Of a stretch of DNA of 64,000 nucleotides, positions 16,866-61,014 are shown piece by piece. Source of the DNA: Spirochaetota bacterium (lineage in GTDB: Bacteria > Spirochaetota > Spirochaetia > Treponematales > UBA12059); assembly GCA_022703505.1 (NCBI GenBank), contig JAKLDN010000008.1, positions 158,422 to 222,421 on the forward strand. Reading direction: 5' to 3'. Under the pieces are notes generated by a model. It was not told where the DNA came from and did no database searches. It was given only the letters and a program-made list of their open reading frames with translations. Position numbers and translations under genes: made by a program. The stretch's first letter is position 1. Each line of letters starts with the position of its first letter.

Positions 16866-18095
16866 CTAGTCCAAGTCCCCCGCGTCCAGGCGATCCGCCA
16901 GGCGGACGCCCACCGCCAGGGCCAACTCAACGGCGGCGGGTTCCACCGCGGACAGGTCGTCCTTGGGGGTGTGGTAGCCCCCGGAGCGCTCCTCGTTGGA
17001 CCACTTCATGGCGATCAGGGTGGTGGCCCGGGCCCCCGCCTTGGCGGTCTCCGCGGCGTCCGTCCCACCCGTCAGGAAGGCGATGGGCTCCACCGCGGCC
17101 GGCACCCCAGCCTCCCGGGCAGCGGCCGCGCAGGCTTCCGCCAGAGGAACCGATAGCTTCACGGAGCCGTTGATGTCGCTGGTCAGGAAGCGGGCGTCCG
17201 CGGCCTTGTAGACGCAGTCCATGTTGTAGTGCCAGGTCGGAAGCCCCGCGATCTCGGCGGCATGGGCTTTGGCCCAGGCCCGGGCCCCCCGGAGCCCCGC
17301 CTCCTCGGCGTCGAAGCTGACGAACAGAAGGCGGGTACCGACCAGGCCCCGGCCCGCGTCCCGGCGGGTCCGGAACTCCCGCAGGAGCTCCAGGGCGATC
17401 GCGGAGGCCGCCAGGTTGTCCCCCGCCCCGGGAGTGCCCTCGGAGCCCGCGAAGTTCCACAGGGGAGCCACCAGGAGGAAGTCGAGGCAGAAGGATATCG
17501 TCACCGCCGCCCTCACCCAGGGTCCCGGTGCCAGGACCGCGACGGCCAGGGAGACGATCCAGAGCACCGCGAAGGAGCCGATGCCGCCGTATACGCGCAG
17601 GGAGTACTTCTCGGGCTTGTCGATGTAAAAGTTGAAGACCCGGGCGGAGTCGTGGTGGCCGCTCACGATGAGCTGGCGCTTCGCGGGCCCGGCGGGCTCC
17701 AGCACCGCGGTCACGTTCCGCCCCGTGCGGCCCGGGAAGAAGGGGTCCAGCACTTCCCGGTACAGGAAGAACCCGAAGATCAGGATGCCGATGCCCGCTG
17801 TCATGAGGACCGCCGAGAGGGCGGGGGCGAAGAAGAGGGCCGGGGCGGAGACCAGGTACAGGACCACGAGCACCCGGATGAAGCCCAGGAAGGCCCCCGG
17901 GTGGACCCGGAAGTCCTCGGCCCAGGCCTTGTCGGCCGCGCCCCGCGCCTCCGCCAGGAGGGCGTCCGCACAGCCCAGGGACGCCTCGCTCCCGGCCAGC
18001 CGCGGCCCGAAGCGTTCGATGAGCTTTCCCGTCAGTTCCAGCGCGGCCTTCGCCCTCGTATTACGCATAGTCATCCTCCCCGCATCAGTATGCAC
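16866..18095 (-). CDS. M28-family peptidase with an internal multi-TM insertion
   Basis: M28 aminopeptidase-like blocks (SGHHDS, FVSFDAEEAGLRGA) interrupted by about 4 hydrophobic helices. Start ambiguous (alternative at 18074). Confidence 0.65.
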   Translation of the reverse strand: MHTDAGRMTMRNTRAKAALELTGKLIERFGPRLAGSEASLGCADALLAEARGAADKAWAEDFRVHPGAFLGFIRVLVVLYLVSAPALFFAPALSAVLMTAGIGILIFGFFLYREVLDPFFPGRTGRNVTAVLEPAGPAKRQLIVSGHHDSARVFNFYIDKPEKYSLRVYGGIGSFAVLWIVSLAVAVLAPGPWVRAAVTISFCLDFLLVAPLWNFAGSEGTPGAGDNLAASAIALELLREFRTRRDAGRGLVGTRLLFVSFDAEEAGLRGARAWAKAHAAEIAGLPTWHYNMDCVYKAADARFLTSDINGSVKLSVPLAEACAAAAREAGVPAAVEPIAFLTGGTDAAETAKAGARATTLIAMKWSNEERSGGYHTPKDDLSAVEPAAVELALAVGVRLADRLDAGDLD

Positions 18096-22198: not shown

Positions 22199-22627
22199 TC
22201 AGTAAAGCAGTTCGACCCGGAGGCCCGGAAACCGTTGGAAATCCCGATCTCCCGTGACGATCACCGCGTCCTGTTCCAGACACAGGGCGGCCAGGTGGGC
22301 GTCCGTCGTGAGGTTGCCCCCCGTACCCGAGGCGAGCAGGAGGTGCCCCAGTATCCCGAGATGGGCCTTTCCGGGATCCAGGATACGGACCGACGGCCGG
22401 GCCGCCAGGTCCCGGATCCACTCCAGGGCCTGTTCAATGGATAAAGGCCGCGGGAAGACACGGCTCGAGGTCGTGAGCCGGAGGAACCCGAGGATCACGG
22501 CCCAGGGAAGTCCGATCTCCTCCGTTCCCCCGTTCACCTCCTCCTTCAGCCACGCCTCCGCCCGCTCGTGGCGGGCCGAGCCCGCGTCGACGGCGTACAG
22601 CAGGACGTTCAGGTCCGGGATGATCAC
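22199..22627 (-). CDS. vapC: PIN-domain toxin VapC
   Basis: MIIPDLNVLLYA...D..D acidic PIN residues. 4-nt overlap with the upstream antitoxin. Confidence 0.8.
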   Translation of the reverse strand: MIIPDLNVLLYAVDAGSARHERAEAWLKEEVNGGTEEIGLPWAVILGFLRLTTSSRVFPRPLSIEQALEWIRDLAARPSVRILDPGKAHLGILGHLLLASGTGGNLTTDAHLAALCLEQDAVIVTGDRDFQRFPGLRVELLY

Positions 22628-22881
22628 TTGCGCAGGTCCCGCTTGGCGATCGCGGCGTCGGCCTCCAGGCTATCCGCGACCTCCCAGGCCTTGTCGAGGT
22701 CCGCGGCGGGAGTCCCCATCCGGTAGGAAACGGGCTTCCACGGGGATCGGCCGACCGGGTCGCGCCCCAGGCCCTTTGCCAGGGTACGGTTCACCTCGTC
22801 CTTGAGGGTCGTCGAGTCCCGGGCCGCCCGGTCCTGTAGCTCGCGCATCAATATGTCCGAAATATCGATCGTAGTGCGCAT
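22624..22881 (-). CDS. vapB: VapB-type antitoxin
   Basis: 85-aa ORF overlapping the VapC start by ATGA. Typical type II TA layout. Confidence 0.6.
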   Translation of the reverse strand: MRTTIDISDILMRELQDRAARDSTTLKDEVNRTLAKGLGRDPVGRSPWKPVSYRMGTPAADLDKAWEVADSLEADAAIAKRDLRK

Positions 22882-22983: not shown

Positions 22984-23017
22984 TGACGTCGCGTACATAG
23001 TGTAGTATATACACTAT
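22984..23017 (+). promoter_or_regulatory. Sigma-70-like promoter (TTGACG-16-TATATA) overlapping a 21-bp palindrome ATAGTGTA-GTATA-TACACTAT
   Basis: -35 at 22984-22989. Palindrome at 22997-23017 covers the -10. Lies 48 nt upstream of the sirtuin start. Confidence 0.55.
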
Positions 23018-23064: not shown

Positions 23065-23883
23065 ATGGCAAAACGGCATCGAATCGATCCTTCGGACTAC
23101 AGGTCCATCGTCTTCCTGACCGGGGCGGGGATATCCGTGGCCTCGGGGATCCGCCCCTATCGGGGACCCGGGGGCCTGTGGAACGACGAGACCCTGGTCA
23201 AGTTCTCGGACCTCGAGACTTTCCGGAAGGATCCCCTAGCGGTCTGGCGCTTCATGAGCGAGACCCGGAGGATCTCCGCCGCCGCCCGGCCCAACCCCGC
23301 CCACCTCGCCCTGGCGGAGCTGGAGGTACGGCTGGAGGCGGAGCAGTCCCTGACGGTCATCACCCAGAACATCGACGGCCTCCACCGCCGGGCCGGGAGC
23401 TCCCACGTGATCGAGTTCCACGGCTCCGTGACCCGGACCCGGTGCTCCAACCACCGCTGCGACTTTCCGGCCTTCGAGGATCCCCTCCTGCACGCGGATT
23501 CCGTGCCCCTCTGCTCGGTCTGCGGCGCCCCCCTCCGGCCGGACGTGGTCTTCTTCGGGGAGATCATCCCCTCCGTCCGGGGCGCCGCGGCCATGGAGGC
23601 CCTGGCGGACTGCGACCTCTTCGTAGCCGTCGGCACCTCGGCCTCGGTATACCCCGCGACCCGCTTCGTGGAATGGGCCTGGAAGCGGAACGCCCGGACG
23701 GTGTTCGTGAACGTGGAGTCCTTCCGGGATCGGGATCCCGTGGCCGCCACCTGGTTCCGGGAGGAGTACATCGGGCCCGCGGAACGGATCCTGCCCCGGC
23801 TCTTCGGGGAGGGCCTGGACGAGGAGGAGCTGGACGGGTACCGGCCCGAGGTACTGGAGGATCTCCCGGAAGCCCGGGAGTAG
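23065..23883 (+). CDS. NAD-dependent protein deacylase, Sir2 family (CobB-like sirtuin)
   Basis: GAGISVASGIRPYRG, TQNIDGLHRRAG, EFHGS catalytic His. Zn-ribbon CSNHRC...CSVCG. GAGGAGG RBS. Confidence 0.85.
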   Translation: MAKRHRIDPSDYRSIVFLTGAGISVASGIRPYRGPGGLWNDETLVKFSDLETFRKDPLAVWRFMSETRRISAAARPNPAHLALAELEVRLEAEQSLTVITQNIDGLHRRAGSSHVIEFHGSVTRTRCSNHRCDFPAFEDPLLHADSVPLCSVCGAPLRPDVVFFGEIIPSVRGAAAMEALADCDLFVAVGTSASVYPATRFVEWAWKRNARTVFVNVESFRDRDPVAATWFREEYIGPAERILPRLFGEGLDEEELDGYRPEVLEDLPEARE

Positions 23884-23917: not shown

Positions 23918-25699
23918 ATGGAGAAAACGGACTTGAGTTTCATGTTCCTGAAAAAGGGCCTGGCCGCCGGCCGGGACCTGGATCTCGTGCTCCGGGTGGA
24001 GACCCCGGCCCGTACCTCCGAGGGCGCACGCAAGCCCGCGGACCTGGCCCTGGTCCTGGACCGCTCCGGATCCATGCAGGGCCGCAAGATCATCTACGCC
24101 CGGCAGGGGGCGGCCGCCGCCGTGGGCCTCCTGGGGCCGGAAGACCAGGCCAGCCTGGTGCAGTTCGACGACCGGGTGGACCTCCTCCAGCCCCTGACCC
24201 CGGCGGGCCGGGCCGGTGCCCTCCAGGCCGCCATCGCGGGCATCGAGCCCCGGGGCAACACCGATCTCCACGGGGGCTGGGCCGCGGGAGCGGACAGCCT
24301 GGGGGACGGAGAACCCGGACGCGGCGCCCGGCGGGTCGTCCTGTTGACCGACGGCCTGGCCAACCACGGGGTGACCGACCCCGGGACCATCGCCGCGAAG
24401 GTGGCCGAGGCGGCCCGCCGGGGCATCGCCACCAGCGCCCTGGGCATCGGGGAGGACTTCAACGAGGAACTCCTGGAGGCCGTGGCCCGGGCCGGGGACG
24501 GCTCCTACACCTTCGTGGAATCCCCGGACCAGCTGCCCGCCTTCTTCGAAGCCGAACTCGCGGGATTCGCGAACCTGGCGGGCCGGGAAGTCCGGCTCGG
24601 CCTGGCCCCGGGACCGGGGATCCAGATCGTCTCGGTCCTGAACGACCTTCCGTCCTCGAACACGGGTTCCCTGGTCCTGCCCAACCTGGTCGCAGGGGGC
24701 CGGCAGGAGATTGGGCTTACCGTGCGGGCCCTGCCGGGCCTGACCGCCCGGCCCGGGGAGGAGACGGAGCTCCTGGCGGTCCGGCTGGAATGGACCGATC
24801 CGGAGACCGGGGAGCGCCGGGAAATGCGGCAGGCCGCCCGCGTCCGGGCGGTCGAGGATCGGGATTTCGAGGCCCTGCCCGCGGATCCCGCCGCAGTGGA
24901 GACCCTGGCCCTGCTCCGGACGGCCCGGGCCAAGCGGGAGGCTCTGAACGCCGTGGACCGGGGGGACGAAGCGGGAATCGCCCTCGCGATGGACCATATC
25001 CGGGCCATCCTGGCGGGAACGCCTCCCACCGAACGGACGGAGCGGGAGAAGATCTCCCTGGCCTCCCTGGAGGAGGACTTCCGGCTCCGGAAAATGGGCA
25101 AGTTCCGCAAGAACGTGCACTACGAGTCCTACGCCCGGGGCCACGCCATGGACGAGGCCCGGCTCTTCGGACATTATTCCCGGAAGCTCCTGTTCCTGGT
25201 CCGGGACAGGCTGGACCTGCACATCGGCAGCCTGGCCGGCTTCCCCTGCGACGCGATCGTGAACTCCCGGTCCGACGAGCCCGCCTCGGGGCTGGACGAG
25301 GCTCTCCGGGCCGCGGGGGGCCCCGCCTTCCGGGCCGCCTGCGAGGCGATCGGCAGGCTGGGCGCAGGTGCCGCGGCCGTCACGGGCGGCGGAGACCTGC
25401 CCGTCAAGTCGGTCATCCACGTGCGGGTCCCGGACTGGCGGGGTGGGAATGCCTCCGAGTTCGGAGCTCTATCGGAGTGCTACGCGGCCTGCCTCCTCGT
25501 CGCGAAGGAGCGGGGCTTCGGCCACGTGGCCTTCCCGGTCCTGGGCGCGGGGGGCAGAGGATTCCCCGTAGATGCCGCAGTTTCCCTTGGGCTGAGTGCC
25601 GCGGCCCAGTTCCTGTTCTCGAACCCGGCGCCGCGGCGGGTGACCTTCGTCTGTCCGGACGGTCCGGCAGCCGAACTGATCTGGGGCCAGCTTCCCTGA
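23918..25699 (+). CDS. vWA (MIDAS) + Macro domain fusion protein
   Basis: N-terminal DLALVLDRSGSM MIDAS motif. C-terminal macro fold: DAIVNSRSD, GGP, VIHV, FPVLGAGGRGFPVD. Confidence 0.8.
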   Translation: MEKTDLSFMFLKKGLAAGRDLDLVLRVETPARTSEGARKPADLALVLDRSGSMQGRKIIYARQGAAAAVGLLGPEDQASLVQFDDRVDLLQPLTPAGRAGALQAAIAGIEPRGNTDLHGGWAAGADSLGDGEPGRGARRVVLLTDGLANHGVTDPGTIAAKVAEAARRGIATSALGIGEDFNEELLEAVARAGDGSYTFVESPDQLPAFFEAELAGFANLAGREVRLGLAPGPGIQIVSVLNDLPSSNTGSLVLPNLVAGGRQEIGLTVRALPGLTARPGEETELLAVRLEWTDPETGERREMRQAARVRAVEDRDFEALPADPAAVETLALLRTARAKREALNAVDRGDEAGIALAMDHIRAILAGTPPTERTEREKISLASLEEDFRLRKMGKFRKNVHYESYARGHAMDEARLFGHYSRKLLFLVRDRLDLHIGSLAGFPCDAIVNSRSDEPASGLDEALRAAGGPAFRAACEAIGRLGAGAAAVTGGGDLPVKSVIHVRVPDWRGGNASEFGALSECYAACLLVAKERGFGHVAFPVLGAGGRGFPVDAAVSLGLSAAAQFLFSNPAPRRVTFVCPDGPAAELIWGQLP

Positions 25700-25744: not shown

Positions 25745-26431
25745 ATGTACACTTACCCGTACCCCCACCCCGCGGTCACCGTGGACTGCGTCGTCTTCGG
25801 CCTGGACGAGGGGGAACTCAAGGTCCTCCTTATCCAGCGGGACCTGGACCCCTTCGCCGGAAAATGGGCCTTGCCCGGGGGCTTCATCCGCATGGACGAG
25901 GACCTGGAGGCTGCCGCCCGGCGGGAACTGGAGGAGGAGACGGGGGTCAAGAAGCTGTACATCGAGCAGCTCGGGGCCTTCGGGACCCCCGGCCGGGATC
26001 CCCGGGAGCGGGTGGTCACCGTGGCCTGGTGGGCGGTGGTCAACCTCTACGAGCACGAGGTGAAGGCCTCCACGGACGCCCGGAACGCCGCCTGGTTCCC
26101 CGTGGAGGAGCTTCCCGCCCTGGCCTTCGACCATCCGGTCATCCTGGACGCGGCGCTGGCCCGCGTGCGGGAAACCCTGCGCCGGGAACCCCTGGCCTTC
26201 GAGTTCCTGCCCCGGAAGTTCACCCTGACCCAGCTCCAGCGCTTCTACGAGACCGTCCTGGGCCGGCCGTTGGACAAGCGCAACTTCCGAAAGAAGGTCC
26301 TTTCCTACGGCCTGCTTGAGGAGCTCGAGGAGTACGAGGTGGACGTGGCCCACCGGGCCGCACAGCTCTATACCTTCCGCCGGGACCGCTACGAAACGTT
26401 CCGGGAGGAAGGCAGCCGGTTCCTGGTATAA
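25745..26431 (+). CDS. NrtR-like Nudix hydrolase-domain transcriptional regulator (Nudix + C-terminal winged helix)
   Basis: Nudix box GKWALPGGFIRMDEDLEAAARRELEEETG. C-terminal 90 aa is helix-rich and basic (KRNFRKKVLSYGLLEE). GAAGGAGG RBS. Confidence 0.7.
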   Translation: MYTYPYPHPAVTVDCVVFGLDEGELKVLLIQRDLDPFAGKWALPGGFIRMDEDLEAAARRELEEETGVKKLYIEQLGAFGTPGRDPRERVVTVAWWAVVNLYEHEVKASTDARNAAWFPVEELPALAFDHPVILDAALARVRETLRREPLAFEFLPRKFTLTQLQRFYETVLGRPLDKRNFRKKVLSYGLLEELEEYEVDVAHRAAQLYTFRRDRYETFREEGSRFLV

Positions 26432-26440: not shown

Positions 26441-28504
26441 ATGCTGGGCGCGATTTCAGGGGACGTCCTGGGCTCGTTGTACGAGGCCTGGTCGATCAAG
26501 GACAAGAACTTCCGGCTCTTCCACGAGCTGGACCGGCCCACCGACGACTCCGTCCTCTCCCTGGCGGTGGCCAAGGCGATCCTGGACGCCGACGCCGAGG
26601 GCCGGTTGCCGGAAGCCGGGGACTACGAGCGGGAACTCCGGGCCTTCGGCCGCCGCTACCCCGACGCGGGCTACGGGGGCTCCTTCCGGGCCTGGGTGAA
26701 CGATCCCGTAGGCAAGCCCTACGAAAGCTTCGGGAACGGCTCGGCCATGCGGGCCTCCGCCGTGGGCTGGGCCTTCGGGGACGCGGAAACCGTCCTGACC
26801 CAGGCGGAACTCTCGGCCGCCCCGACCCACGGCCACCCGGAGGGCATCAAAGGAGCCCAGGCCGTCGCCCTGGCGGTCCTCCGGGCCCGGACGGGATCCT
26901 CGAAGGAGGAAATCCGCTCGGAGCTCTCCCGCCGCTTCGGCTACGACCTGGGCCGGACCGTGGACTCGATCCGGCCGGGCTACCCCTTCGAGGTCAGCTG
27001 CCAGGCCTCGGTCCCGGAGGCGATCGTCGCCTTCCTGGATTCCCGGGATTGGGAGGACGCGGTGCGGAACGCCGTCTCCCTGGGGGGCGACGCGGACACC
27101 CAGGCCTGCATCGCCGGGGCGATCGCCGAGGCCTTCTACGGCGGGGTTCCGCCCCGGGTCCTGGCCTGGGTCCTGCCCCGGCTGGAGGCCGGCCTCCTTT
27201 CGACCCTCTCGGACTTCGCGCGCCGCTTCCTGCCCGCCGACCGGGCCGCGGCCGTGGCCGCCGAGACCGCGGCCCGCGGTCTGCCCCGGGGAGTACCGGG
27301 GGCGGGCGGGAACCGGAAGGCCGGCGGAGCCGGCCCCGCCCCGGGCGACCGGAAGCGCCGCGGAGCGGCGCATGCCGGAGACCCGGGCAGGGACCCCGAC
27401 ACCCGGCACCCCCTGGCCCCCGCCCCGGGCTACCGGGTGGTCCTGGCCGGCTCGACCCGGGCCCGGATCGCCGACTACGCACGGCGCCTTTCCGCGGACC
27501 CAGGTCTCGCGGGGGCGCGGCTCCAGGCGGCCCTGGCGGACCTGGCTGTCCCCAGGTTTGACGCGGCCTGGCTCCTCGTCTCCCTCCTGGCCACCAAGAA
27601 GCCCCGGATCTTCGCGGAGAGCGAGGTGGCCGGGGACGGCTCGGACTGGACCCGGGAGGAGCTCGGGCTTTTGGGGGACATCGGCTTCGCGGTGCCCGTC
27701 ACGGTCTTCGACGACGGCCGCCACTCCGCCCCCCGGGTACACTCGACGCCCTTCGGGGCCACCCTGCTCTTCGCCCCCGGGGCCCTGTTGGCAGGGAGGC
27801 GGGGATCCCCCGCGGACGGGCACGTAGCCCCCGGCGGCCACATCGACCCGGTCCGGTACGGGGCCCTCTACGAGGGGCGGCTCCTCCCCCTCCTCCAGTA
27901 CGCGAGCGCCGTCTCCTCGGCGGCGGGCCGGAAGGCCCTGGTCACCGTGCCGGGCCTGGGCTGCGGCCAGTTCGCCGGACCTTTCCGGGGCCGCCTGGGA
28001 CCGTACCTGAGGGACGCCCTGGCGGGGATCCTGAAACGGAACGCGAAGATCCTGCCGGGCATCCGGGCCGTCCGCCTCGATCCCTACGACGAATGCGGGA
28101 ACGAGGACCGGCGCATCGGACGGATCGCCTTCCGGGTCCGCCCCCTGGCGGTGAACGAACGGAAGGGCACGGGGCTCGGCCTGCCCCAGCTCCGCCCGCC
28201 CCGGGACTACCAGGAGCCCGGGGACGACTTCTCGGACTGCGACCTCTTCAGCGTCGTCGCCTGGGACCCCGTCTCCTGGCCCGGGAACGACTACTGGGCC
28301 GGGGCCCGGGCCACCGACGACGGGGTCAAGGCCGCGGCCACGGACGCGATGTTCGCCCTTTCGGGCTTCCGGGGCCGCTACGACCCGGAGACCTGCGGAT
28401 ATCTGCCGCCCCCGGGGGTCCGCGCCTGGGAGGACCTGGTCCTGGAGCAGCGCCTGGTCCTGCGGGCCGTGGACAACGTGACGGTCGTCGGATCTCCGGG
28501 ATGA
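26441..28504 (+). CDS. ADP-ribosylglycohydrolase (DraG/ARH family) fused to a 400-aa uncharacterized C-terminal domain
   Basis: N-terminal ARH motifs (DDSVLSLA, GNGSAMRASAVGW, GGDADTQACIAGAIAEAFYG). The C-terminal half has a TVPGLGCGQFAG glycine-rich loop and no family I can name. AAGGAGG RBS. Confidence 0.75.
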   Translation: MLGAISGDVLGSLYEAWSIKDKNFRLFHELDRPTDDSVLSLAVAKAILDADAEGRLPEAGDYERELRAFGRRYPDAGYGGSFRAWVNDPVGKPYESFGNGSAMRASAVGWAFGDAETVLTQAELSAAPTHGHPEGIKGAQAVALAVLRARTGSSKEEIRSELSRRFGYDLGRTVDSIRPGYPFEVSCQASVPEAIVAFLDSRDWEDAVRNAVSLGGDADTQACIAGAIAEAFYGGVPPRVLAWVLPRLEAGLLSTLSDFARRFLPADRAAAVAAETAARGLPRGVPGAGGNRKAGGAGPAPGDRKRRGAAHAGDPGRDPDTRHPLAPAPGYRVVLAGSTRARIADYARRLSADPGLAGARLQAALADLAVPRFDAAWLLVSLLATKKPRIFAESEVAGDGSDWTREELGLLGDIGFAVPVTVFDDGRHSAPRVHSTPFGATLLFAPGALLAGRRGSPADGHVAPGGHIDPVRYGALYEGRLLPLLQYASAVSSAAGRKALVTVPGLGCGQFAGPFRGRLGPYLRDALAGILKRNAKILPGIRAVRLDPYDECGNEDRRIGRIAFRVRPLAVNERKGTGLGLPQLRPPRDYQEPGDDFSDCDLFSVVAWDPVSWPGNDYWAGARATDDGVKAAATDAMFALSGFRGRYDPETCGYLPPPGVRAWEDLVLEQRLVLRAVDNVTVVGSPG

Positions 28505-28655: not shown

Positions 28656-28813
28656 AAGTTTGCGCGCGCGTCGGGAGGACGAAGCCGACCGCCTCATGCT
28701 TCGTGAGCCCGCACCCTCCCTCTGGCGCCCGGCCCGGCCATGCCCGATACTTGAACCGAGGCGGCCGCCGCCCGGACACTCGCTCCCTTCGGCGCGGCCG
28801 GACTGGAGGTTCC

Positions 28814-30112
28814 ATGGATCCCCTGGCGATATCCCAGGCCCTCTCGGCCCTGGTCTTCGGGGCCCTGTCCGCGGGGAGTCTCCTCCTGGGCGCCTGGACC
28901 GGAATATTCCTGAAGCCGCCGCCCCGGGTCTCCGCCGCGGTCATGGCCTTCGGCGCGGGGGCCCTCTTCGCGGCCCTGTCCCTGGAACTGATCGGCGAGG
29001 CGGTGGAGCGCCTCCACGGGAACTTCTGGCCCATCGGACTGGGCTGCGTGGCCGGGGGCCTGCTCTTCGTCACCCTGGACCACCTGGTGAACGGCGCGGG
29101 AGGCTTCCTCCGCAAGCGCTCCACCCTGTCCCGGCGCCTCCGAGCGGACCGGAGGAAGGACGTCCGGCTCCTCCTGGAGAGTCTGGCCAAGGTCCCCCTC
29201 TTCGCCAGCCTGCCCCCCGAGGAGGTCCGCAGCCTGGCGGACCAGGTGACCCGGGTGCGCTGCGACGCCGGCACCCCGGTCATCCGCACCGGGGAGCCCG
29301 GGGCCGAGCTCTACCTGGTCGAGTCCGGCCGCCTGGAGGTATCCCGGGGGGGCGCAAGCCTGGCGGTCCTCGGGCCCGGGGACATGGTCGGGGAGATGGC
29401 CCTGCTCACCGGGGAGACCCGCACCGCGGACGTGACGACCCTGGAAGCGGCGGTCCTGCTCACCCTGCGCAAGGAAGCCTTCGACCGACTCCTGGCCGCG
29501 AACCCCCGGCTCCGGGAGGCGGTGGAGAGACTGTCCGGCCAGCGGCGGGAGGCCCTGGAGAAGGCGGCCGCCACGGTGGACCCTGCGGCCTGGGCCCGGA
29601 AGGCCGGGACCGGGGACTGGAAGCCCAGCTCCCTGGAGCTGGACGAGGCCTTCGCCCAGGCTGGGGGAAAGAAGAAGGGCGGGGCCCCCATGGGTATCTG
29701 GCTGGGCATCCTCCTGGACGGCGTCCCCGAGTCCGCGGTCATCGGTGCCAGCATGATCGGGGCCGAGAAGGCCAGCCTGGCCCTGATCCTGGGACTCTTC
29801 ATCGCCAACTACCCCGAGGCCCTGTCCAGCGCCGTGGGGATGCGGAAGATGGGCATGTCGGTGTGGAAGATCACCGCCCTCTGGGGCTCCATCGTGGCCC
29901 TGACCGCGGTGGGCGCGGGGATCGGCAACCTGGCCTTCCGCTCGGCCCCCGGGGAGCTGGTGGCCCTCTTCGAGAGCCTGGCCGCGGGCTCCATGCTGGC
30001 CATGCTGGCGGAGACCATGATGCCCGAGGCCTACGAGCACGGCGGTTCCGTCACCGGTATGGCCACCATCCTGGGCTTCGTGTCCGCGGTCTTCCTGCGG
30101 GTGGCGGGGTGA
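28814..30112 (+). CDS. ZIP-family metal transporter with an inserted cyclic-nucleotide-binding (CAP_ED) domain
   Basis: TM helices and GIxLHxxxEG-like ZIP blocks at both ends. Central cNMP fold (FASLPPEEV...GEPGAELYLVESG...GEMALL..RTA). GGAGG RBS. Confidence 0.75.
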   Translation: MDPLAISQALSALVFGALSAGSLLLGAWTGIFLKPPPRVSAAVMAFGAGALFAALSLELIGEAVERLHGNFWPIGLGCVAGGLLFVTLDHLVNGAGGFLRKRSTLSRRLRADRRKDVRLLLESLAKVPLFASLPPEEVRSLADQVTRVRCDAGTPVIRTGEPGAELYLVESGRLEVSRGGASLAVLGPGDMVGEMALLTGETRTADVTTLEAAVLLTLRKEAFDRLLAANPRLREAVERLSGQRREALEKAAATVDPAAWARKAGTGDWKPSSLELDEAFAQAGGKKKGGAPMGIWLGILLDGVPESAVIGASMIGAEKASLALILGLFIANYPEALSSAVGMRKMGMSVWKITALWGSIVALTAVGAGIGNLAFRSAPGELVALFESLAAGSMLAMLAETMMPEAYEHGGSVTGMATILGFVSAVFLRVAG

Positions 30113-30205
30113 TTCGGAATTCCGAGCCCCCTCGATAATCAGGATGGATTCCCGGAACCGTGATAGACTGAAGGATAGAGAATCATTACAAAGGAGCGTC
30201 CCTTC

Positions 30206-31186
30206 ATGAAGATCCACGTCATCGGCTGCGGCAACGCCTTTTCCAGCGAGTCCTTCAACCAGTCCTTCGTGATCGAGGAAGCCGGGCGGCGCATGCTCAT
30301 CGACTGCGGCATGCAGACCCCCCAGGCCCTGGTCACGGCCCGGTACAAGCCCCAGGACATCCACGACATCTACGTGAGCCACCTCCACGCGGACCACGTC
30401 GGGGGCCTGGAGTACTTCGCTTTCGCCCGGTACGACTGGGCCAAGCATCCCCGGTCCTGGTCGGAGGGGACCTACGCCCCCCGGCTGATCGGCAACGTCC
30501 AGCTCCTCCGGGACCTCTGGGACAAGACCCTCCGGGGCGGCCTGGAATCCATGGAGGGTTTCGTCTCGAACCTGGAGACCTTCTTCGAGCCGGTCCCCGT
30601 CGAGCCGAACAAGCGCTTCGAGTGGCAGGGCTGGACCGTGGACCTGATCCAGCAGATCCACATCATGTCGGGCTCGGTGATCATGCCCTCCTTCGGCATC
30701 CTCTTCAGCAGGACGGGCCGCAAGTCCGTGTACTTCGTGACGGACAGCCAGCACTGCTCGCCCCGGCAGATCGAGGAGTACTACAAGCGCGCGGACCTGA
30801 TCTTCCAGGACTGCGAGTGCACGGGCATGGACCTTCGCTTCCCCGAGGGCGCCAAGACCTACGTCCAGGACGGGGTCCCGAAGGCCTGGCCCGAGGACGA
30901 GATGGAGGCCCTGGACCTCCTGGCCCGGGGGATCGAGCCCGTGAAATGGTCCCGGTACAAGTTCTCCTCGGGGGTCCACGCCAACTACGCCCAGCTGGCG
31001 GGCTACGAGAGCGCCAACTCCATCAAGCTGGATCCCCAGGTCAAGGCCAAGATGTGGCTCTCCCACTACCAGGACTACGTCCTCATCGGCAAGGACCACT
31101 TCGGCAACGAGGTCGACTGGGCCGCGGAGGCGAAGAGAGACGGGTTCGCGGGCTTCGTCAAGCTGGGCCAGCGATTCGAGGTCTGA
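30206..31186 (+). CDS. MBL-fold metallo-hydrolase
   Basis: HLHADHVGG (HxHxDH) motif. AAGGAG RBS. Confidence 0.75.
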   Translation: MKIHVIGCGNAFSSESFNQSFVIEEAGRRMLIDCGMQTPQALVTARYKPQDIHDIYVSHLHADHVGGLEYFAFARYDWAKHPRSWSEGTYAPRLIGNVQLLRDLWDKTLRGGLESMEGFVSNLETFFEPVPVEPNKRFEWQGWTVDLIQQIHIMSGSVIMPSFGILFSRTGRKSVYFVTDSQHCSPRQIEEYYKRADLIFQDCECTGMDLRFPEGAKTYVQDGVPKAWPEDEMEALDLLARGIEPVKWSRYKFSSGVHANYAQLAGYESANSIKLDPQVKAKMWLSHYQDYVLIGKDHFGNEVDWAAEAKRDGFAGFVKLGQRFEV

Positions 31187-31226
31187 GGTACGGAGGGTCC
31201 GGAATGGAACCGTCCGGGAGGTCCCC

Positions 31227-32774
31227 GTGAAGCGGCGTCCGCGGGACTCCGAGGAGCTCGAGGAACTCGAGGCTGTCGAGGAAGACGAGTCAGTCGAAGA
31301 GCTCGAGTCGGTCGAGGACGCGGAGCCGGTCCCCCAGGACTCGGAGGCGGTACCGCTGTACTCCGAACTTCCGGACTTCGCGTCCCCCGAGGCTTCCCTG
31401 GGCCCTCCGGGCGTGCCGGCCGACGAATCGATCCGGCGGGGATTCGAGGCGGAGATGCGGATCCTCCAGGCGGAACTGGAGAGGATCCGGCAGGCCAAGA
31501 GCGACGCGGCACGGCATGAAACACCGACCAGCGGCAGGAAGCACACAAAGGAGAAACCCATGGAAGAACTCAGGGACCCGGGCTCGAGCCCACAGACCTA
31601 CGGCACCAAAGAATACATCAAGCGGCGCCGCAAGCTTTCGGGCCTTTTCTTCGAGACCGCCCTGCCCAACGAGTACCTGGTGGAGGTGGGGCGCAAGGAC
31701 GTCCGACCCCGCCTGGGGGGCCGGCGATTCCGGCTCTTCCGTAAGTTCCTGCGCATCCCCGCCTCGGTCCAGACCCTGGTCTTCACCACGGACAACGCCA
31801 ACGTGGACTACCAGGGGATCGGTGTGGACGGCTACGCCTCCTGGCGGGTGGACCCGGAGCATCCCGAGGTCGCGGTCCGCACCCTGGACTTCTTCGACGA
31901 GGACGACCCCATGGCTCGCACCAACGCCGAGCTCCGGACGATCTGCGTGGAGGCGGTCCGCCACGTGATCTCCAACATGAGCATCGACGACGCCCTCAAG
32001 AAGAAGGACGAGATCGCGGAGAACCTCTCCCGCCAGCTCAAGGGGATCGAGCGGAAGTGGGGCATCCTCTTCGACCAGGTGGGGATCGAGAAGGTCCGCA
32101 TCATGTCGGACCGCCTGTTCGAGCAGCTCCAGGCCCAGTTCCGGGACGGGCTCCGGTTGGAGGTGGAGCGCAAGCGGATCGCCACGGACCGCCAGATCGC
32201 GGCGGAGCAGAACGCCATGCGGGAGGGCACGGGGCTGGAGACCATCCTGACCAACCAGAAACTCGAACTCTCCGAGGTGGAGCAGAAGGCCCGGGTCCAG
32301 GAGGCCCAGGCGGCGGAGGCCCACCGCCTGGCCCTCCAGAAGATCGAGATAGACCGCGCGACCTTCCGGGAAGAGCAGTCCTTCCGCACCGAGAAGGAGA
32401 AGGAGGGCCATGCCCTGGCACTCCTGGAACGGACACTGAAGACGGAACTGGCCGCCGCGGAACTCCGGCTCCTCAAGGAAGAGTCCTCGGTGGAGGACCT
32501 GCGGGCGAAGATCGGGGAGCGCCAGCTGGAGCTCCAGCGCCTCCAGCGGGAGGTTTCCCAGGTCTTCTCCGACCAGGCCCTGGCCAGCGAATTCATCCAG
32601 CGCCTGCCCTCCCTGTTCGCGGCCCTCCAGATCGACAACTACACCGTCCTGGATTCGGGCTCGGGCCAGGTCACGCCGGTCACCCGGGTGCTGACGGAGG
32701 TGGCCGCGGCCCTGAAGGGCCTGGACCTCAAGGGACTCCTGGGCGGGGGAAAGGACGCGGCCCCCGGGGCCTGA
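31227..32774 (+). CDS. SPFH/band-7 (flotillin-like) protein with acidic N-terminal repeats and long coiled coil
   Basis: GTG start after GGGAGG. EELEELEAVEEDESVEELESVED N-terminus. SPFH core. Extended EA-rich coiled coil. Confidence 0.65.
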   Translation: MKRRPRDSEELEELEAVEEDESVEELESVEDAEPVPQDSEAVPLYSELPDFASPEASLGPPGVPADESIRRGFEAEMRILQAELERIRQAKSDAARHETPTSGRKHTKEKPMEELRDPGSSPQTYGTKEYIKRRRKLSGLFFETALPNEYLVEVGRKDVRPRLGGRRFRLFRKFLRIPASVQTLVFTTDNANVDYQGIGVDGYASWRVDPEHPEVAVRTLDFFDEDDPMARTNAELRTICVEAVRHVISNMSIDDALKKKDEIAENLSRQLKGIERKWGILFDQVGIEKVRIMSDRLFEQLQAQFRDGLRLEVERKRIATDRQIAAEQNAMREGTGLETILTNQKLELSEVEQKARVQEAQAAEAHRLALQKIEIDRATFREEQSFRTEKEKEGHALALLERTLKTELAAAELRLLKEESSVEDLRAKIGERQLELQRLQREVSQVFSDQALASEFIQRLPSLFAALQIDNYTVLDSGSGQVTPVTRVLTEVAAALKGLDLKGLLGGGKDAAPGA

Positions 32775-45566: not shown

Positions 45567-46823
45567 TCAAGCTCTTTTAAAAGCTCCCTGCATCCGCTCA
45601 ATTTCAGGCCTACGGATGCCCAGAGCCTTCGCCCGCACCTGCCACCTCGAGACCACCCCGCGTATCGCCTCCATGATCGAGAGTGCCTCGGGCTTTGAGA
45701 GCCTGAAGTACTGCGCGACCGATAGGGCCAAGTCGAAATCCAACGAATTGTCATGCTCGTCGATGGCGAGGGAGAGGCCCGCCGAATCAGGCGAGGGATT
45801 GATGTCGTAGGCGGGAGAAAGCCACCAGCCCTTCGCATCGAGGAGGAAGCCATGATTCCGAAGATGGTCGTCGGTGTTGGAAACGGCGATGGAAAACACG
45901 ATGCGTTTCCAGAGCTCCCGCAGATCGGCGTCGGGCCGGGATCCGGAGCGCATGATGAACTCCGCGAGCTCGAGGTAGCTTGCGCCGGCCTCGGCGTCAT
46001 CGCCGTCCTTGCGGCCGAGCAAGGTCATGGCGGAGGCGAAATGGATACGTCCCTCTCCTTGGCGATCGAAGCGCTTCGTCATGAAGGTGGAGCCTCGCTT
46101 CGAGAAGGAGTCTAGCCTGCATTCGCTCATCTCGATGCCAGCTGCGCAGGCGAGGTCGGCGACGAGCATCTCCCAAGCGCCTGAGTCGCGTTCATCATCC
46201 TTGCCCGGGAACTTGGCTATCCAGAGTTCGCCCTTCTCGTCCACTACGCTAGCCTTGGGCCTAGCGCCTCCGAGCGAGGAGCCGGGCGCAATCAACATGG
46301 CGAGCCAGGGGTCGAGCTTGTCGTCATCCTCTTCATGTTCCGCGAGGAAACTCGCATACTCGAGATCGCGTAGCGTTGACCACGGCGGGGCTGCCATAGC
46401 CGTATCCAAGCTCTGATAGGCTTCGTTGCCTGGTATCTTAAACCGCAAGGCGCCCAAACGATTCTTATCATGAACGCCGAGGAGGTACTCCGCTTCTCCG
46501 AGCCTTCGCGGCGTCCGCCCTTCCTTCCTTGCCAAGATGGCCTCGCGCCGCCTCATGAGGACGCGGCCCCAACGATCGGGAGAGGAATCCAGGAACAGGC
46601 CGAAATTTGGCTTACCCACCCCGGCATACTGGGGTCCCTTATAGAATCGCAGATCAGGGTCGAGCGTTCGGTTGTCGTCGCGGCGAAGCCATGCCGCGTC
46701 GTACTCGAAGGAGAAGACTTCCTTGCCGCGCGGCGCTTGGACGGACAACGTGCCGAGATGGGCAACGGATCCAAGGCCGAGCCAATCGGCATACACTTCG
46801 ATAGTGCGCCCGGCGTCGCTCAT
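45567..46823 (-). CDS. hipA: HipA-family Ser/Thr kinase toxin
   Basis: 418 aa. SNTDDHLRNHGF catalytic loop. Confidence 0.85.
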   Translation of the reverse strand: MSDAGRTIEVYADWLGLGSVAHLGTLSVQAPRGKEVFSFEYDAAWLRRDDNRTLDPDLRFYKGPQYAGVGKPNFGLFLDSSPDRWGRVLMRRREAILARKEGRTPRRLGEAEYLLGVHDKNRLGALRFKIPGNEAYQSLDTAMAAPPWSTLRDLEYASFLAEHEEDDDKLDPWLAMLIAPGSSLGGARPKASVVDEKGELWIAKFPGKDDERDSGAWEMLVADLACAAGIEMSECRLDSFSKRGSTFMTKRFDRQGEGRIHFASAMTLLGRKDGDDAEAGASYLELAEFIMRSGSRPDADLRELWKRIVFSIAVSNTDDHLRNHGFLLDAKGWWLSPAYDINPSPDSAGLSLAIDEHDNSLDFDLALSVAQYFRLSKPEALSIMEAIRGVVSRWQVRAKALGIRRPEIERMQGAFKRA

Positions 46824-47149
46824 GATTCATCCTTCTTCGGCGACTTTCGGGCACGCCGTCGGCTAGGAAGCTTGGCGTCCTGGAGAGCGCGTCCGAGCTC
46901 GTCATCGAGCGCGACAGCCTCGAGGTCCTTCTCGAGTCCCAGCACGAACAAGACCTGTATCCAAGTAGCCATCGATACCGAGCCGGAGCCATTCTCGAGG
47001 GCGCTCAGGGTCTGTCGGCTGATGCCCGCCCGTTCGGCAACCATCTCGGCGCTGAGATCGCGTCGGAGCCGCGCCAGTCGGATATTCTCGCCGAGCGTTT
47101 CGAGGCTACGTTGGACACTGGGCAATAGGACCGGGAGTTTCTTAGGCAT
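46820..47149 (-). CDS. hipB: HipB-like XRE-family HTH antitoxin
   Basis: LSAEMVAERAGISRQTLSALENG HTH. 4-nt overlap with hipA. Confidence 0.75.
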   Translation of the reverse strand: MPKKLPVLLPSVQRSLETLGENIRLARLRRDLSAEMVAERAGISRQTLSALENGSGSVSMATWIQVLFVLGLEKDLEAVALDDELGRALQDAKLPSRRRARKSPKKDES

Positions 47150-47353
47150 AACGTATAATATAATAGGCATAAAAGGTATATCTGTCAAATTATTACGACG
47201 TAAAACTGAATAACACAACTCACATGCAAAGGTGGTTCTTACAAAATGTCGAGAATCGGACTACTTTGATGTTCCTGACACGGCCACTTCATTGACCATA
47301 CCCTAGAAGGTATCTCCATGGTTTATACCTTGATGGGTAAATGGTAAGAAAGG

Positions 47354-47779
47354 CTATTGAACGATAGGCGTCTTCCCGTCCTTAACCTTGCTAGTCGTCT
47401 TAGCTGCAATCCGCGAGGCGGAGCCCCGGGACTTAGAAACTCCACGAGCACTGGAGGGTTGAGTAGCATAGGTCATAATCCGTTCACGCTGAATGAAGCC
47501 ATGGTCCTTCCGGAGGACTTCCAGAAAACGGCAAGCAGCGCCATTCGGGACGTTCCGACCAGCTTCCCAGGCCTCAACGGTCTTCTTAGCGACTCCAAGA
47601 ACTTGGGCGAAAACAGTCTGGGAAAGCCCAAGAGCGAGCCGGAGTGCCTTAACCGCATGGGCATCATAGGTGGGAAGCGGTGCTATCTTGATCGCTGTAG
47701 TCTTGAGCTTAAGCTTGCCCTCTTGATGAGCCTTGACCTCAGAGAGGCCACGCATGATGCTCTCGAACGCTTCGCCCAT
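47354..47779 (-). CDS. HigA-like HTH antitoxin
   Basis: LRLALGLSQTVFAQVLGVAKKTVEAWEAG HTH. Sits immediately downstream of the toxin. Confidence 0.7.
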   Translation of the reverse strand: MGEAFESIMRGLSEVKAHQEGKLKLKTTAIKIAPLPTYDAHAVKALRLALGLSQTVFAQVLGVAKKTVEAWEAGRNVPNGAACRFLEVLRKDHGFIQRERIMTYATQPSSARGVSKSRGSASRIAAKTTSKVKDGKTPIVQ

Positions 47780-47780
47780 A

Positions 47781-48109
47781 TCAGTCTCCTAACAGTCCCT
47801 TTACGTACGTCTTGATCGCCTGCTTCTCTTCGGAGCTCAGGTTGTCCTTCTCATCCTTACCGAAAACAGTGATGAGATAGATCAGGCCGGACGCCCGCAT
47901 ATCGAGATAGATCGTCCGCAGGCTCCCGGATTCCCCCTACCTTCGCGCGCCCAGCGCAGCTTACGCACACCACCTGTTCCCTGGATGACCGGAGCGATCT
48001 CCGGATGCTCGAGGAGGTAGTTCTGGAGCTCGCGGAGGTCATCCTCCGTCATCCCGAGGGCCTTCCATCGGGATTGGAACTCCTTGGTCTCTACAAAGGT
48101 TCTCGTCAT
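47781..48109 (-). pseudogene. RelE/HigB-family toxin disrupted by a -1 frameshift in a G5 homopolymer
   Basis: N-terminal MTRTFVETKEFQSRWKAL...GVRKLRWAREGRG in one frame. C-terminal ESGSLRTIYLDMRASGLIYLITVFGKDEKDNLS in another. Adding one G at about 47935 restores a 108-aa toxin. Confidence 0.7.
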
Positions 48110-48302
48110 CCAGTATACCAGACCACCCTATCTAATAGGGTACTTAGAATGAATATAGCTCTGTGAGAGACTCTCGTCTAGAAGAGGGAAGGATATGAAA
48201 GAGGAAACTCGATAAAGCGGTTTGACGCGCTCGAGCGAGTACTAGCAGGTACAGAATGTCTCTCCCCCATATCGCGTTGCCCTGAAACAGCCTGTGGGTT
48301 AA

Positions 48303-48338
48303 GACTAAAAAGCCCGCCCCATAAGGGAGCGGGCCAAG
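48303..48338 (-). terminator. Intrinsic terminator after the 327-aa gene
   Basis: Minus strand GGCCCGCTCCC-ttat-GGGGCGGGC followed by TTTTTAG. Confidence 0.55.
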
Positions 48339-48340
48339 GG

Positions 48341-49324
48341 TCATTCCAGGAAGCTATAACGGGACTTCATGTAGCGCGCCCAGGGTTCCAGCTCCGGGTG
48401 CCGGTCAGTCGGGACATACCGGAAGAGCTGTTCAGTCGGGATGTACCTGAACTCGTCGGGCATGAGGAGCAGTGTCGGCCACAGCTCGTAGAGGTCGCGG
48501 AAGAACTTACGGTAATGCGGCGAAGTGATGGACCGAAGTTCACGATTAGCTCCGACGGCAATGTGGACCACGATGACGTTATCGACCTCGGGGATGCCGA
48601 CCTCCAGGATGCGGGATGCCAGGAGTTGATGCCGGGCAAGCTGATACATCGGCTCATAGAGCAGGTATTCGATTCGCGGTACAACCTCCAGATTGAACGG
48701 TGTAAAGGGACCATAGAAGATCTCGCGGTAGGTATCCACGCGATCCGAGCCATCGGTCCTAAACCTCTTGTACTGGGACGAATAACTCTCGGTAAACTTA
48801 ACCTCGCACAGCATGAAGACCTTGCGATCATCCATGGTCTCAAAGCACATCGCAGCGTCGATGGAGGTTGAGCCAGCACCGCGAATCCGGTCGGTACCGA
48901 CATGAGATTCCTCCCCTAGGTAGTTGATGTCGCCCTGCCACTCGAAGGCGATGAACGCATCCTCCTCCACAGGGAGCATTCGTTTGATCTCGGGGAATTG
49001 CGGACGAAGGAAGTCAGCCAGAGCATCCGGGCGATTGCGGAACGGGAAGAGCGTGTTGACGCAGAATATCTGGCTGGAACAGGTATGGTTGGTTGGCAAG
49101 CCAGGAAGCGCGGCTCCATGCCAGACGATGCCAAGGCGCTCGAAGGTAGCCAGGGCATCGTCCCGGATCTCATGGAACAAGTTGTAGGCGGCGAGCTCAA
49201 GCGGGAAGCAGAATGGGTACATACGGCTCCGGTATAAGCCCGGAGCCCTGGCCTCGCGCGGGAGAGCCTTGCTGGTCAGCTTCCACTCCAACTGCATCTT
49301 CTTGGCGACGGAGAGGTAATTCAC
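48341..49324 (-). CDS. Hypothetical protein, possible PD-(D/E)xK-type nuclease
   Basis: 327 aa. DDRKVFMLCEVKF resembles a D...E-x-K patch. Sits downstream of the RecT-like gene. Confidence 0.35.
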   Translation of the reverse strand: MNYLSVAKKMQLEWKLTSKALPREARAPGLYRSRMYPFCFPLELAAYNLFHEIRDDALATFERLGIVWHGAALPGLPTNHTCSSQIFCVNTLFPFRNRPDALADFLRPQFPEIKRMLPVEEDAFIAFEWQGDINYLGEESHVGTDRIRGAGSTSIDAAMCFETMDDRKVFMLCEVKFTESYSSQYKRFRTDGSDRVDTYREIFYGPFTPFNLEVVPRIEYLLYEPMYQLARHQLLASRILEVGIPEVDNVIVVHIAVGANRELRSITSPHYRKFFRDLYELWPTLLLMPDEFRYIPTEQLFRYVPTDRHPELEPWARYMKSRYSFLE

Positions 49325-49338
49325 GATAAAGTCCTCCC

Positions 49339-50253: not shown

Positions 50254-50410
50254 GGGAGACCTCCTAGGGGATGGATCTCCAATATCAGTAGTATCGCCAT
50301 ATACGACCAGGAAGTAGAAATGTCCCAACCGAAGCCCAAGCTGGATGTTCATTGACAGCACAATTGGCGCGGTGTACTGTCCATAAGATACTTAACTGGA
50401 GGTAAAAACG

Positions 50411-50611
50411 ATGGCAGATGTATCTACGTCAGGATTCAATGGAACGACAGACATCCCAACGCAAGTCTTCGAAAGCTTCCTTTCGGAGCTGAAGAGCACC
50501 GGAGCATCGAGCGAGATGATCGAAAGACTTCGCAAGACGTTGCTCGAGGATCACATCTTCACAGAAGGCGCTCTAAAGACCGCCGTTCTAGGTGAGGAGA
50601 CGTCGCTATGA
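50411..50611 (+). CDS. Small 66-aa protein translationally coupled to the ATPase
   Basis: GGAGGT RBS. Stop overlaps the ATPase start (ATGA). Confidence 0.5.
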   Translation: MADVSTSGFNGTTDIPTQVFESFLSELKSTGASSEMIERLRKTLLEDHIFTEGALKTAVLGEETSL

Positions 50612-53061: not shown

Positions 53062-53240
53062 TGTCGCTTCTAGCTTTCGAAAGATAGAAGGCACTTTCTC
53101 CTCCTCGGGCTAGGTTTGTTAATGCCATCCTTAGACATGATAGCATTATACTATTGGACGGGATCTCCTACAGTATAGAGAGGGATTTATCAGCGCAGGG
53201 AATATGGCGGAAAACCAAAACCTACAATCAAGCATCATGT

Positions 53241-54146: not shown

Positions 54147-54158
54147 TATCTTAAGCGC

Positions 54159-54494: not shown

Positions 54495-54669
54495 TCACCT
54501 CACATTGTCATGAAAATCGCCCAAAGCTGTTCCCGTACATCCCAACCCGCCGCATCCCACTTCATCGCCCAGACGAAGTGCCCTTTGACCTTCGACGCGC
54601 AGGCCCGTGATCTACCCTTCTCTCGCAGGATTCGGTTAGTGTGGAACTCTAGGCAGTTCAGCACTGCTA

Positions 54670-60977: not shown

Positions 60978-61014
60978 AGGCTGTCCTTGTCAAAGAGCTC
61001 GCGAGCTGGTTTCA

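Follow-up and report, generated by a model that had tools for sequence, protein, structure and literature searches.

What is a macro domain, with its hold on ADP-ribose, doing at the end of a vWA protein, and with which genes does such a protein work? The question arises in a 64,000-nucleotide stretch of a Spirochaetota genome (assembly GCA_022703505.1, contig JAKLDN010000008.1, positions 158,422 to 222,421 of the forward strand), hereafter called the window, where a gene at 23918..25699 on the + strand, vWA-macro, carries both domains. An initial annotation had suggested that the vWA part docks the ADP-ribose-handling part onto a specific partner, with the sirtuin encoded directly upstream as a candidate. 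We propose, with a probability of about one half, that the vWA-macro locus is an ADP-ribose-inducible eraser module and a variant of the ARG-centric systems, for which a role against ADP-ribosylation has been predicted (Iyer, Burroughs, Anantharaman, Aravind 2022, Viruses 14:1977, section 3.8), and that its vWA part serves as a recruiting adaptor. The locus consists of four + strand genes in the order Sir2, vWA-macro, NrtR and ARH-MavL; 34, 45 and 9 bp separate them in turn, and there is no terminator signal above chance in between.

The vWA-macro gene is a single open reading frame (ORF) from ATG to stop that encodes 593 amino acids. Its GC contents at the three codon positions (0.76/0.52/0.89) are typical for genes of this stretch of about 70% GC, third-position GC is uniform along the continuous frame, and a Shine-Dalgarno sequence, GAGGAG, is found 8 nt before the ATG. 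Five metagenomic homologues from independent assemblies, with 68-87% identity, are each exactly 593 amino acids long and contain both domains, and a partial protein 100% identical to vWA-macro is on record from a Spirochaetia metagenome-assembled genome (MAG). Coordinates, codon GC and homologue lengths thus agree with the initial annotation that the ORF encodes one polypeptide, and the motifs quoted there (DRSGS, AIVN, GGG, VIHV and FPVLGAGGRGFP) are all present in the translation. Its assignment of a vWA and a macro domain was equally sound, the Pfam VWA and Macro matches both being far above their gathering cut-offs.

The C-terminal region, whose alignment with macro domains we checked, does align with them, both through Pfam Macro and through comparison with YmdB by sequence and by structure. 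The MacroD/YmdB-like domain occupies residues 432-593 (25211..25696, + strand), with the Pfam Macro match at residues 456-556 (E 9.6e-23). In phmmer searches it matched E. coli YmdB with an E-value of about 5e-22 and the PARP14 macro domains with 6e-25, and Foldseek superimposed it on YmdB with a root-mean-square deviation of 1.5-1.8 Å and a target-normalised template-modelling score of 0.9. Among solved structures, E. coli YmdB and the macrodomains of PARP14 and MacroD2 are the closest to it. It shares with YmdB, MacroD1 and MacroD2 the fold, both ADP-ribose-binding loops and the Asp of the catalytic loop. However, YmdB is a stand-alone protein, whereas the macro domain of the window is fused to a 430-residue scaffold and has a Ser/Arg/Arg site, to which we return below.

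The scaffold itself comprises three structural domains. AlphaFold2 modelled the 593-residue protein as one compact body (mean predicted local distance difference 90.3, predicted template-modelling score 0.86). Its N-terminal beta-strands (residues 1-41, 23918..24040, + strand; strands modelled at 5-10 and 20-28 and aligned by Foldseek with 4fx5, 8s05 and 5a8j) are probably, in this model, the first part of a beta-sandwich interrupted by the vWA domain. The latter spans residues 42-218 (24041..24571, + strand), is matched by Pfam VWA (residues 42-211, E 1.9e-15), VWA_2 and VWA_3, and has a complete MIDAS (metal-ion-dependent adhesion site). Two family alignments, each with 31 sequences, show its residues D48-x-S50-x-S52, T115 and D145 to be invariant or conserved to at least 90%. 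The beta-sandwich domain (residues 220-311, 24575..24850, + strand) has no Pfam match and was recognised from the model and from its Foldseek similarity to ArnB-type proteins and Sec23/24. It is followed by a helical bundle (residues 324-427, 24887..25198, + strand; helices 324-347, 351-366, 372-389, 393-408 and 413-427) in the position of the regulatory helical bundle of ArnB.

When the model was compared with the PDB, the first 400-430 residues aligned as a unit over 406-434 columns, the top full-body matches being 4fx5 (a Catenulispora vWA protein), 8s05 (Sulfolobus ArnA-ArnB) and 5a8j (an ArnB paralogue), with a weaker match of the scaffold part to Sec24. The deposition title of 8s05 itself speaks of "an archaeal ortholog of the Sec23/24 core motif". 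In ArnB the vWA domain divides the beta-sandwich, after which comes a regulatory helical bundle recognised by ArnA's FHA domain (PMC12852372), and the same order of split sandwich and helical bundle is found in vWA-macro. The translation shows neither a signal peptide nor a hydrophobic N-terminus, which indicates that the protein is intracellular; a secreted, adhesin-type vWA protein was rejected for this reason and since all the partners are cytoplasmic enzymes.

The genes that surround vWA-macro deal with ADP-ribose in several ways. Downstream, at 26441..28504 (+ strand), lies a 687-residue fusion of an ARH/ARG domain (residues 1-234; Pfam ADP_ribosyl_GH, E 1.4e-33) with a MavL/DUF4804-type macrodomain (residues 331-657; Pfam MavL, E 5.6e-105). 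The ARH metal-site motifs TDD and GDADT are present, and both MavL signature motifs, VPGLGCGQF and WDPVSWPGNDYW, are intact; these are the signatures given for the arginine-specific MavL class in the MavL paper (PMC10951314), which reports experiments showing MavL-type domains to be arginine-specific ADP-ribosylhydrolases. The protein joins two unrelated folds of arginine-de-ADP-ribosylase families, each with its signature set intact. In Spirochaetota this fusion is a common one (about 45 clusters, 45-91% identical), and we found no discussion of it in the accessible part of the MavL paper. The ARH domains nearest to that of the window are fused to ARPP-1, SseB, DUF3293, Metallophos and His_Phos_1, and by its sequence the window's ARH belongs to the ARG clade. 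As a side observation, DUF3293 occurs fused to a closely related ARH domain in protein P0299, and a DUF3293 gene (L004:5758-6540) lies two genes upstream of the stand-alone scaffold P0012, which hints that DUF3293 is part of the same functional network.

Between vWA-macro and ARH-MavL, at 25745..26431 (+ strand), is an NrtR-type regulator composed of a Nudix domain and an NrtR winged helix (Pfam NUDIX, E 1.1e-23; NrtR_WHD, E 2.2e-26). Its Nudix box, GX5EX7REUXEEXGU, is intact (GFIRMDEDLEAAARRELEEETGV), and the NCBIfam model "ADPR responsive transcriptional repressor NtrR" matches it with 174.9 bits, under the cut-off of 400. The first gene of the operon, at 23065..23883 (+ strand), encodes a Sir2-family NAD-dependent deacylase of class III, similar to Sirt5 and CobB (Pfam SIR2, E 1.3e-42). 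Its longest ORF begins at GTG 23041, but its probable start is ATG 23065, after the ribosome-binding site GAGGAGG, and the orthologue in locus L008 is called at 272 amino acids. NCBIfam deacylase models match it below their cut-offs, its best solved relatives are Sirt5 and CobB with the catalytic His aligned, and it reads as an ordinary class III enzyme and not as an ADP-ribosylating SirTM.

Upstream of the operon we identified a candidate NrtR operator, a perfect 21-bp palindrome at 22997..23017 on neither strand in particular (ATAGTGTAGTATATACACTAT, that is, ATAGTGTA-GTATA-TACACTAT, the core being GT-N7-AC). Its end lies 48 bp before the Sir2 ATG, and a TTGACG hexamer precedes it by 8 bp. 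The window holds no second copy, and 100 shuffles yielded not one match with three mismatches or fewer. An identical palindrome precedes Sir2 in L008 and L009, two independent contigs with an 85%-identical orthologue, while L001, which has no Sir2, has three copies: at a divergent ARH start, directly before vWA-macro and directly before a second ARH gene. The palindrome is conserved in L001, L002, L008 and L009 and was not found in the other 85 of the 89 loci scanned, none of which come from these spirochaetes. Most NrtR operators have 21-bp palindromic symmetry and a GT-N7-AC core (Rodionov et al. 2008, PMC2330246). The features of an NrtR regulon, a Nudix and winged-helix regulator with 21-bp GT-N7-AC palindromes upstream of genes, are thus found together here, and on this comparative evidence the vWA-macro and ARH genes appear to form an NrtR regulon in these spirochaetes; the classical NAD-biosynthesis targets of NrtR were not seen in the window. 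By analogy with established NrtR proteins, we infer that NrtR would bind the palindrome and respond to ADP-ribose.

A sigma-70 promoter scan called no promoter upstream of Sir2. By eye we read TTGACG-17-TATATA there, which fails the scan's rule of a T at position 6 of the -10 hexamer and which we regard as a candidate promoter. In L008, an NrtR-type half-site pattern (L008:4423-4439) stands directly before a DUF1152 gene followed by a histone-deacetylase-family gene, a pair that may share the regulon and of which no equivalent was seen in the window. We also considered that the linkage to Sir2 might reflect deacetylation of NrtR by a CobB-like enzyme, and dropped this idea after checking it against data from M. 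smegmatis, where NrtR acetylation is the same in a cobB deletion strain (PMC6800001).

How widely is the fusion shared? We searched 1.84 billion cluster representatives for the vWA family and obtained 1,238 relatives at E <= 1e-30; a second protein search with the family alignment returned only proteins that had already been found. A phmmer screen of 238 collected proteins, from which the architecture classes were defined, showed that about 140 are stand-alone scaffolds of about 420 residues and that 43 match the macro query, of which about 38 are fusions confirmed on the tree. One member, P0192, has the macro domain permuted to the N-terminus of the scaffold; its gene (L092:1787-3745) adjoins convergent genes for lipoate-protein ligase (LplA), a setting reminiscent of the link between macro and LplA in SirTM operons. 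About 10 of the 238 have an ARH domain at the C-terminus, P0224 has an FHA domain fused at the position of the macro domain, and P0236 has an RsbW-like kinase and STAS. In a rough neighbour-joining tree built on the scaffold region, the macro fusions cluster strongly (10 state changes versus about 35 with shuffled labels), and the ARH fusions form one clade that adjoins the main macro clade. Thus macro and ARH domains, two unrelated folds, replace one another on closely related scaffolds.

Among GTDB species genomes, we found 80 loci of the vWA family, spread over Cyanobacteria, Acidobacteriota, Chloroflexota, Deinococcota, Actinomycetota, Proteobacteria and one Heimdallarchaeote. The full vWA-macro fusion was present in four of the 80, namely in Lyngbya, Microcoleus, a Trueperaceae MAG and one unclassified MAG. 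The architecture, which had been described as unusual, is therefore a minority form within its family, but it is also a recurrent one, given the roughly 38 clusters that carry it.

Among the 94 loci of our neighbourhood sample, ARH genes flank vWA-macro in the window, L001 (twice), L005, L008, L048 and L090, the last of which also has a PTP/rhodanese-phosphatase-type (PTP/Tc-R-P) gene and a UvrD-like fragment. The proposal of a fusion between a docking module and one that handles ADP-ribose gains support from these recurrent ARH neighbours, from the ARH fusion on the same scaffold in the neighbouring clade and from section 3.8 of Iyer et al. (2022), where vWA is proposed to act as a peptide-binding chaperone and Macro as an accessory of ARG-centric systems. 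The choice of the sirtuin as partner is not borne out by conservation. Sir2 adjoins vWA-macro only where relatives reach 85% identity or more (L008 and L009) and is absent beside it in L001, L005, L010, L048, L090, L091, L092 and L094. We also noticed an M28-family peptidase gene near vWA-macro in three loci (16866-18095 on the - strand of the window, L008:3430-4410 and L090:2437-3402); in L090 it is directly downstream, and it may be a coincidence or an accessory component.

The commonest neighbour of the scaffold family is a different gene. Immediately upstream of the vWA gene, and often overlapping it, is a gene for a protein of about 210 residues with an N-terminal MerR-type helix-turn-helix (HTH), a disordered linker and the C-terminal motif W-x-R-h-x-h-x-x-G-h-E-L-x-h-R-x-D (for example at L010:7299-7940, L048:1905-3188 and L091:61-789). 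A hidden Markov model (HMM) of this neighbour matched 33 of the 94 loci, including six non-spirochaete vWA-macro loci, and the protein is likely the cognate partner of the scaffold in other lineages. No such partner was found in the six-frame ORFs of the window with an HMM built from 13 sequences and a regular expression of the motif, nor in the spirochaete loci with the HMM. In the spirochaete clade it is NrtR instead that accompanies the scaffold as its DNA-binding protein.

Taken as an eraser module, the locus could work as follows. NrtR, seated on the 21-bp palindrome that overlaps the promoter region, would keep the operon off. ADP-ribosylation of proteins, for instance by an invading phage or by a toxin ADP-ribosyltransferase, would set the system in motion; alternatively, sirtuin turnover yielding O-acetyl-ADP-ribose might be the trigger. 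Free ADP-ribose would bind the Nudix domain of NrtR, and the repressor would leave its operator. The induced ARH and MavL-type domains would then remove arginine-linked ADP-ribose, while the MacroD-like domain would act on acidic-residue esters or on O-acetyl-ADP-ribose. The MIDAS face of the scaffold, with its vWA, sandwich and helical parts, would dock the modified target or a partner and so bring the macro domain to it.

Several observations weigh against this proposal. Within the clade of the window, the macro site reads NSRS ... SGLDEALR ... GAGGRGFP, which in YmdB numbering amounts to the replacements N25 to Ser, H39 to Arg and Y126 to Arg. The Asn equivalent to MacroD2 N92 and YmdB N25, which shields the 2''-OH in MacroD enzymes (Rack et al. 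review, PMC7050489), is Ser in the window and in the whole clade (NSRS), and the aromatic residue of the diphosphate loop, G-x-[YF]-G, is Arg (GGRG). Since three catalytic or ribose-orienting positions are substituted, hydrolysis by the window's macro domain cannot be assumed, and the domain of this clade may not hydrolyse the usual substrates. The macro domain had been called complete; it has the macro fold with the ADP-ribose-binding cleft, but these three positions are substituted. Further, the ARG-centric class is defined, in section 3.8 of Iyer et al. (2022), by having no coupled ADP-ribosyltransferase or sirtuin, and a Sir2 gene is coupled in the window, L008 and L009, though not in L001. 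Gene scans of the window found no phosphatase gene in the operon, and no defence-system model of PADLOC matches vWA-macro, Sir2 or ARH-MavL. In the phmmer screen of the wider scaffold loci in GTDB genomes, only about 12% had an ADP-ribose-related neighbour; given this and the members of the family that carry FHA or RsbW-STAS, the scaffold would be a general signalling adaptor and not a dedicated ADP-ribose device.

The same substitutions lend themselves to another reading, in which the macro domain of this clade is a non-catalytic sensor or reader of ADP-ribose and determines the binding partners of the ArnB-like scaffold, much as the helical bundle of archaeal ArnB is read by ArnA's FHA domain. 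The result would be a regulatory output, such as the sequestration or release of a transcription factor or other partner. The Ser, Arg and Arg residues are conserved from 50% to 100% identity, sister members carry pure signalling domains at the C-terminus (FHA in P0224, RsbW-like kinase and STAS in P0236), the closest structures are ArnB-type regulators, and the MerR-type gene immediately upstream in most other lineages resembles a pair of transcription factor and scaffold. However, the canonical motifs N-x-x-N, G-V-D-G-A-x-H and G-x-Y-G-Y-P are kept in most of the distant vWA-macro proteins outside the clade, and ARH, purely an enzyme, takes the place of the macro domain in the neighbouring clade. 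The catalytic-loop Asp, D35 (GLDEAL), is also kept in the window, and not all active MacroD enzymes have the Asp/His pair on the helix that follows the catalytic loop, some active viral ones being without residues of the supposed dyad (PMC7050489). The window also lacks a MerR-like partner. We consider a non-catalytic switch unlikely, if the best placed of the alternatives.

A wider version of this idea is doubtful but worth stating. The ArnB-like scaffold and its MerR-type partner could be a widespread bacterial signalling pair comparable to archaeal ArnA/ArnB, in which NrtR has replaced the partner in these spirochaetes and the C-terminal domain sets the mark that is read or erased: phospho-threonine for FHA, ADP-ribose for macro and ARH, partner switching for RsbW-STAS. 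The protein of the window would then be an ADP-ribose-gated switch whose Ser/Arg/Arg site binds a specific ADP-ribose derivative without hydrolysing it and couples this signal to transcription of the eraser operon.

A further possibility, which recasts the sirtuin link of the initial annotation in metabolic terms, is that the operon handles a by-product of its sirtuin. Sir2 would make O-acetyl-ADP-ribose, the YmdB-like macro domain would deacetylate it to ADP-ribose, and NrtR would sense the product and perhaps cleave it with its Nudix domain, with the vWA part as a tether between the macro domain and the sirtuin or the sirtuin's substrates. Sir2 is indeed the first gene behind the palindrome in the window, L008 and L009, the nearest relative of the macro domain is YmdB, an O-acetyl-ADP-ribose deacetylase, MacroD enzymes accept O-acetyl-ADP-ribose (PMC7050489), and the Nudix signature of NrtR is intact. 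Yet L001, without Sir2, keeps the vWA-macro, NrtR and ARH genes together with the operators, and none of the other vWA-macro loci examined has a Sir2 gene. Ser stands here at the position of N25, which is important in YmdB and MacroD enzymes, and handling of a sirtuin by-product leaves unexplained both ARH-MavL, whose two halves belong to protein-arginine de-ADP-ribosylase families, and the three-domain scaffold. We find this explanation still more doubtful. As for separate vWA and macro genes joined by a sequencing or assembly error, the different frames of the two parts in a stop-to-stop ORF screen of one distant locus (L048) fit an error or pseudogene local to that MAG, and a missed frameshift in the window is practically out of the question given the continuous frame with uniform third-position GC, the 593-residue product in independent assemblies, the roughly 38 further fusion clusters and the compact, confident single-body AlphaFold2 model.

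The rest of the window offers some additional context. A VapBC-type pair (a PIN toxin and an 85-residue antitoxin) at 22199-22881 on the - strand is divergent from the Sir2 operon and occupies the same position in L008. Downstream of the operon, after a gap of 198 bp, three genes on the + strand (28703-32774) encode a cyclic-nucleotide-monophosphate-binding membrane protein that matches PADLOC Pycsar effector models, a metallo-beta-lactamase-fold protein that matches the anti-Pycsar Apyc1 family and an SPFH/Band-7 protein; the trio may be related to cyclic-nucleotide signalling or defence. From 46000 to 64000 the GC content falls from about 0.70 to 0.50-0.57 and the genes include HipA, a PD-(D/E)XK nuclease (Pfam REase-ARP), RecT and a ResIII helicase, and the region probably represents a mobile or defence island. 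The match to REase-ARP deserves mention because the family takes its name from an association with ARG-phosphatase systems ("Restriction Endonuclease associating with ARP"), though its distance from the operon is 20 kb here.

If the locus is an eraser module, it bears on the removal of ADP-ribose marks by bacteria that did not write them, for which the only proposal is the computational one in section 3.8 of Iyer et al. (2022). It offers a compact example with a predicted ADP-ribose-sensing repressor, an explicit operator and three unrelated hydrolase folds (MacroD-like, ARH and MavL-like). The fusion would tell which chaperone works with which eraser, and the MIDAS face would provide a handle for finding the physiological target. 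At the level of the family, the pattern places ADP-ribosylation beside phosphorylation as a mark read by ArnB/Sec23-24-like scaffolds, and a scaffold that carries macro, ARH, FHA or RsbW-STAS, usually alongside a small protein of the MerR type, is suggestive of a wider signalling system. In the limited literature accessible to us, we found no earlier description of an explicit NrtR operator before these genes, of the displacement between macro and ARH on the scaffold, of the vWA part as a three-domain scaffold of the ArnB/Sec23-24 type, or of the MerR-type partner with its C-terminal motif.

Four known systems invite comparison. In the vWA-MoxR conflict systems, Macro and Nudix are among the effector domains found on vWA components (Kaur, Burroughs, Iyer, Aravind 2020, eLife), so that the bare pairing of vWA and macro is not unprecedented. 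No gene for a MoxR AAA+ ATPase was found among the ORFs scanned in the 64-kb window, nor in the precomputed Pfam annotations of the related loci examined, and we rejected a vWA-MoxR system since the window has no MoxR gene. The SirTM/Zn-macro operons (Rack et al. 2015, Mol Cell) likewise place a sirtuin gene beside a MacroD-type macro gene, within an operon of the stress type. However, the sirtuin of the window is of class III and not class M, the macro loop is without the Cys zinc motif, the adjacency of sirtuin and macro is here limited to close relatives, and Pfam scans found neither GcvH-L nor LplA2 in the operon or among its neighbours. We therefore rejected a SirTM-macro system on the grounds of the class III-like sirtuin, the missing zinc loop and the missing GcvH-L and LplA2.

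The likeness to ArnB goes further. ArnB and ArnE of Sulfolobus (8s05 and 5a8j), 4fx5 and the Sec23/24 core motif account for the top structural matches of the scaffold, and the ArnB bundle is read by an FHA domain, a reader of post-translational modification, and family member P0224 has FHA at the macro position. On the other hand, sequence identity is only 16-21%, neither ArnB nor Sec23/24 has a macro domain, the mark implied here is ADP-ribosylation and not phosphorylation, and no gene for an ArnA-like zinc-finger-FHA partner, a kinase or a phosphatase was found in the operon or the flanking genes scanned.

The closest parallel is with the ARG-centric systems, a class that, in section 3.8 of Iyer et al. 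(2022), is itself a computational prediction only. As described there, about 42% of these systems have a Nudix-HTH or WYL-HTH negative regulator and about 55% a coupled phosphatase, the latter being missing from the operon of the window. In addition, vWA and Macro form one polypeptide here, and the ARG domain is fused to a MavL-type macrodomain. Most components are nevertheless shared: both have an ARG/ARH core enzyme, a Nudix-HTH repressor predicted to sense ADP-ribose, a vWA and a Macro component, and the ARH of the window is nearest to ARH domains fused with ARPP-1, SseB and phosphatase domains. Moreover, the PTP/rhodanese-phosphatase and the UvrD-like fragment that accompany vWA-macro in L090 are among the components listed for ARG-centric systems in that section.

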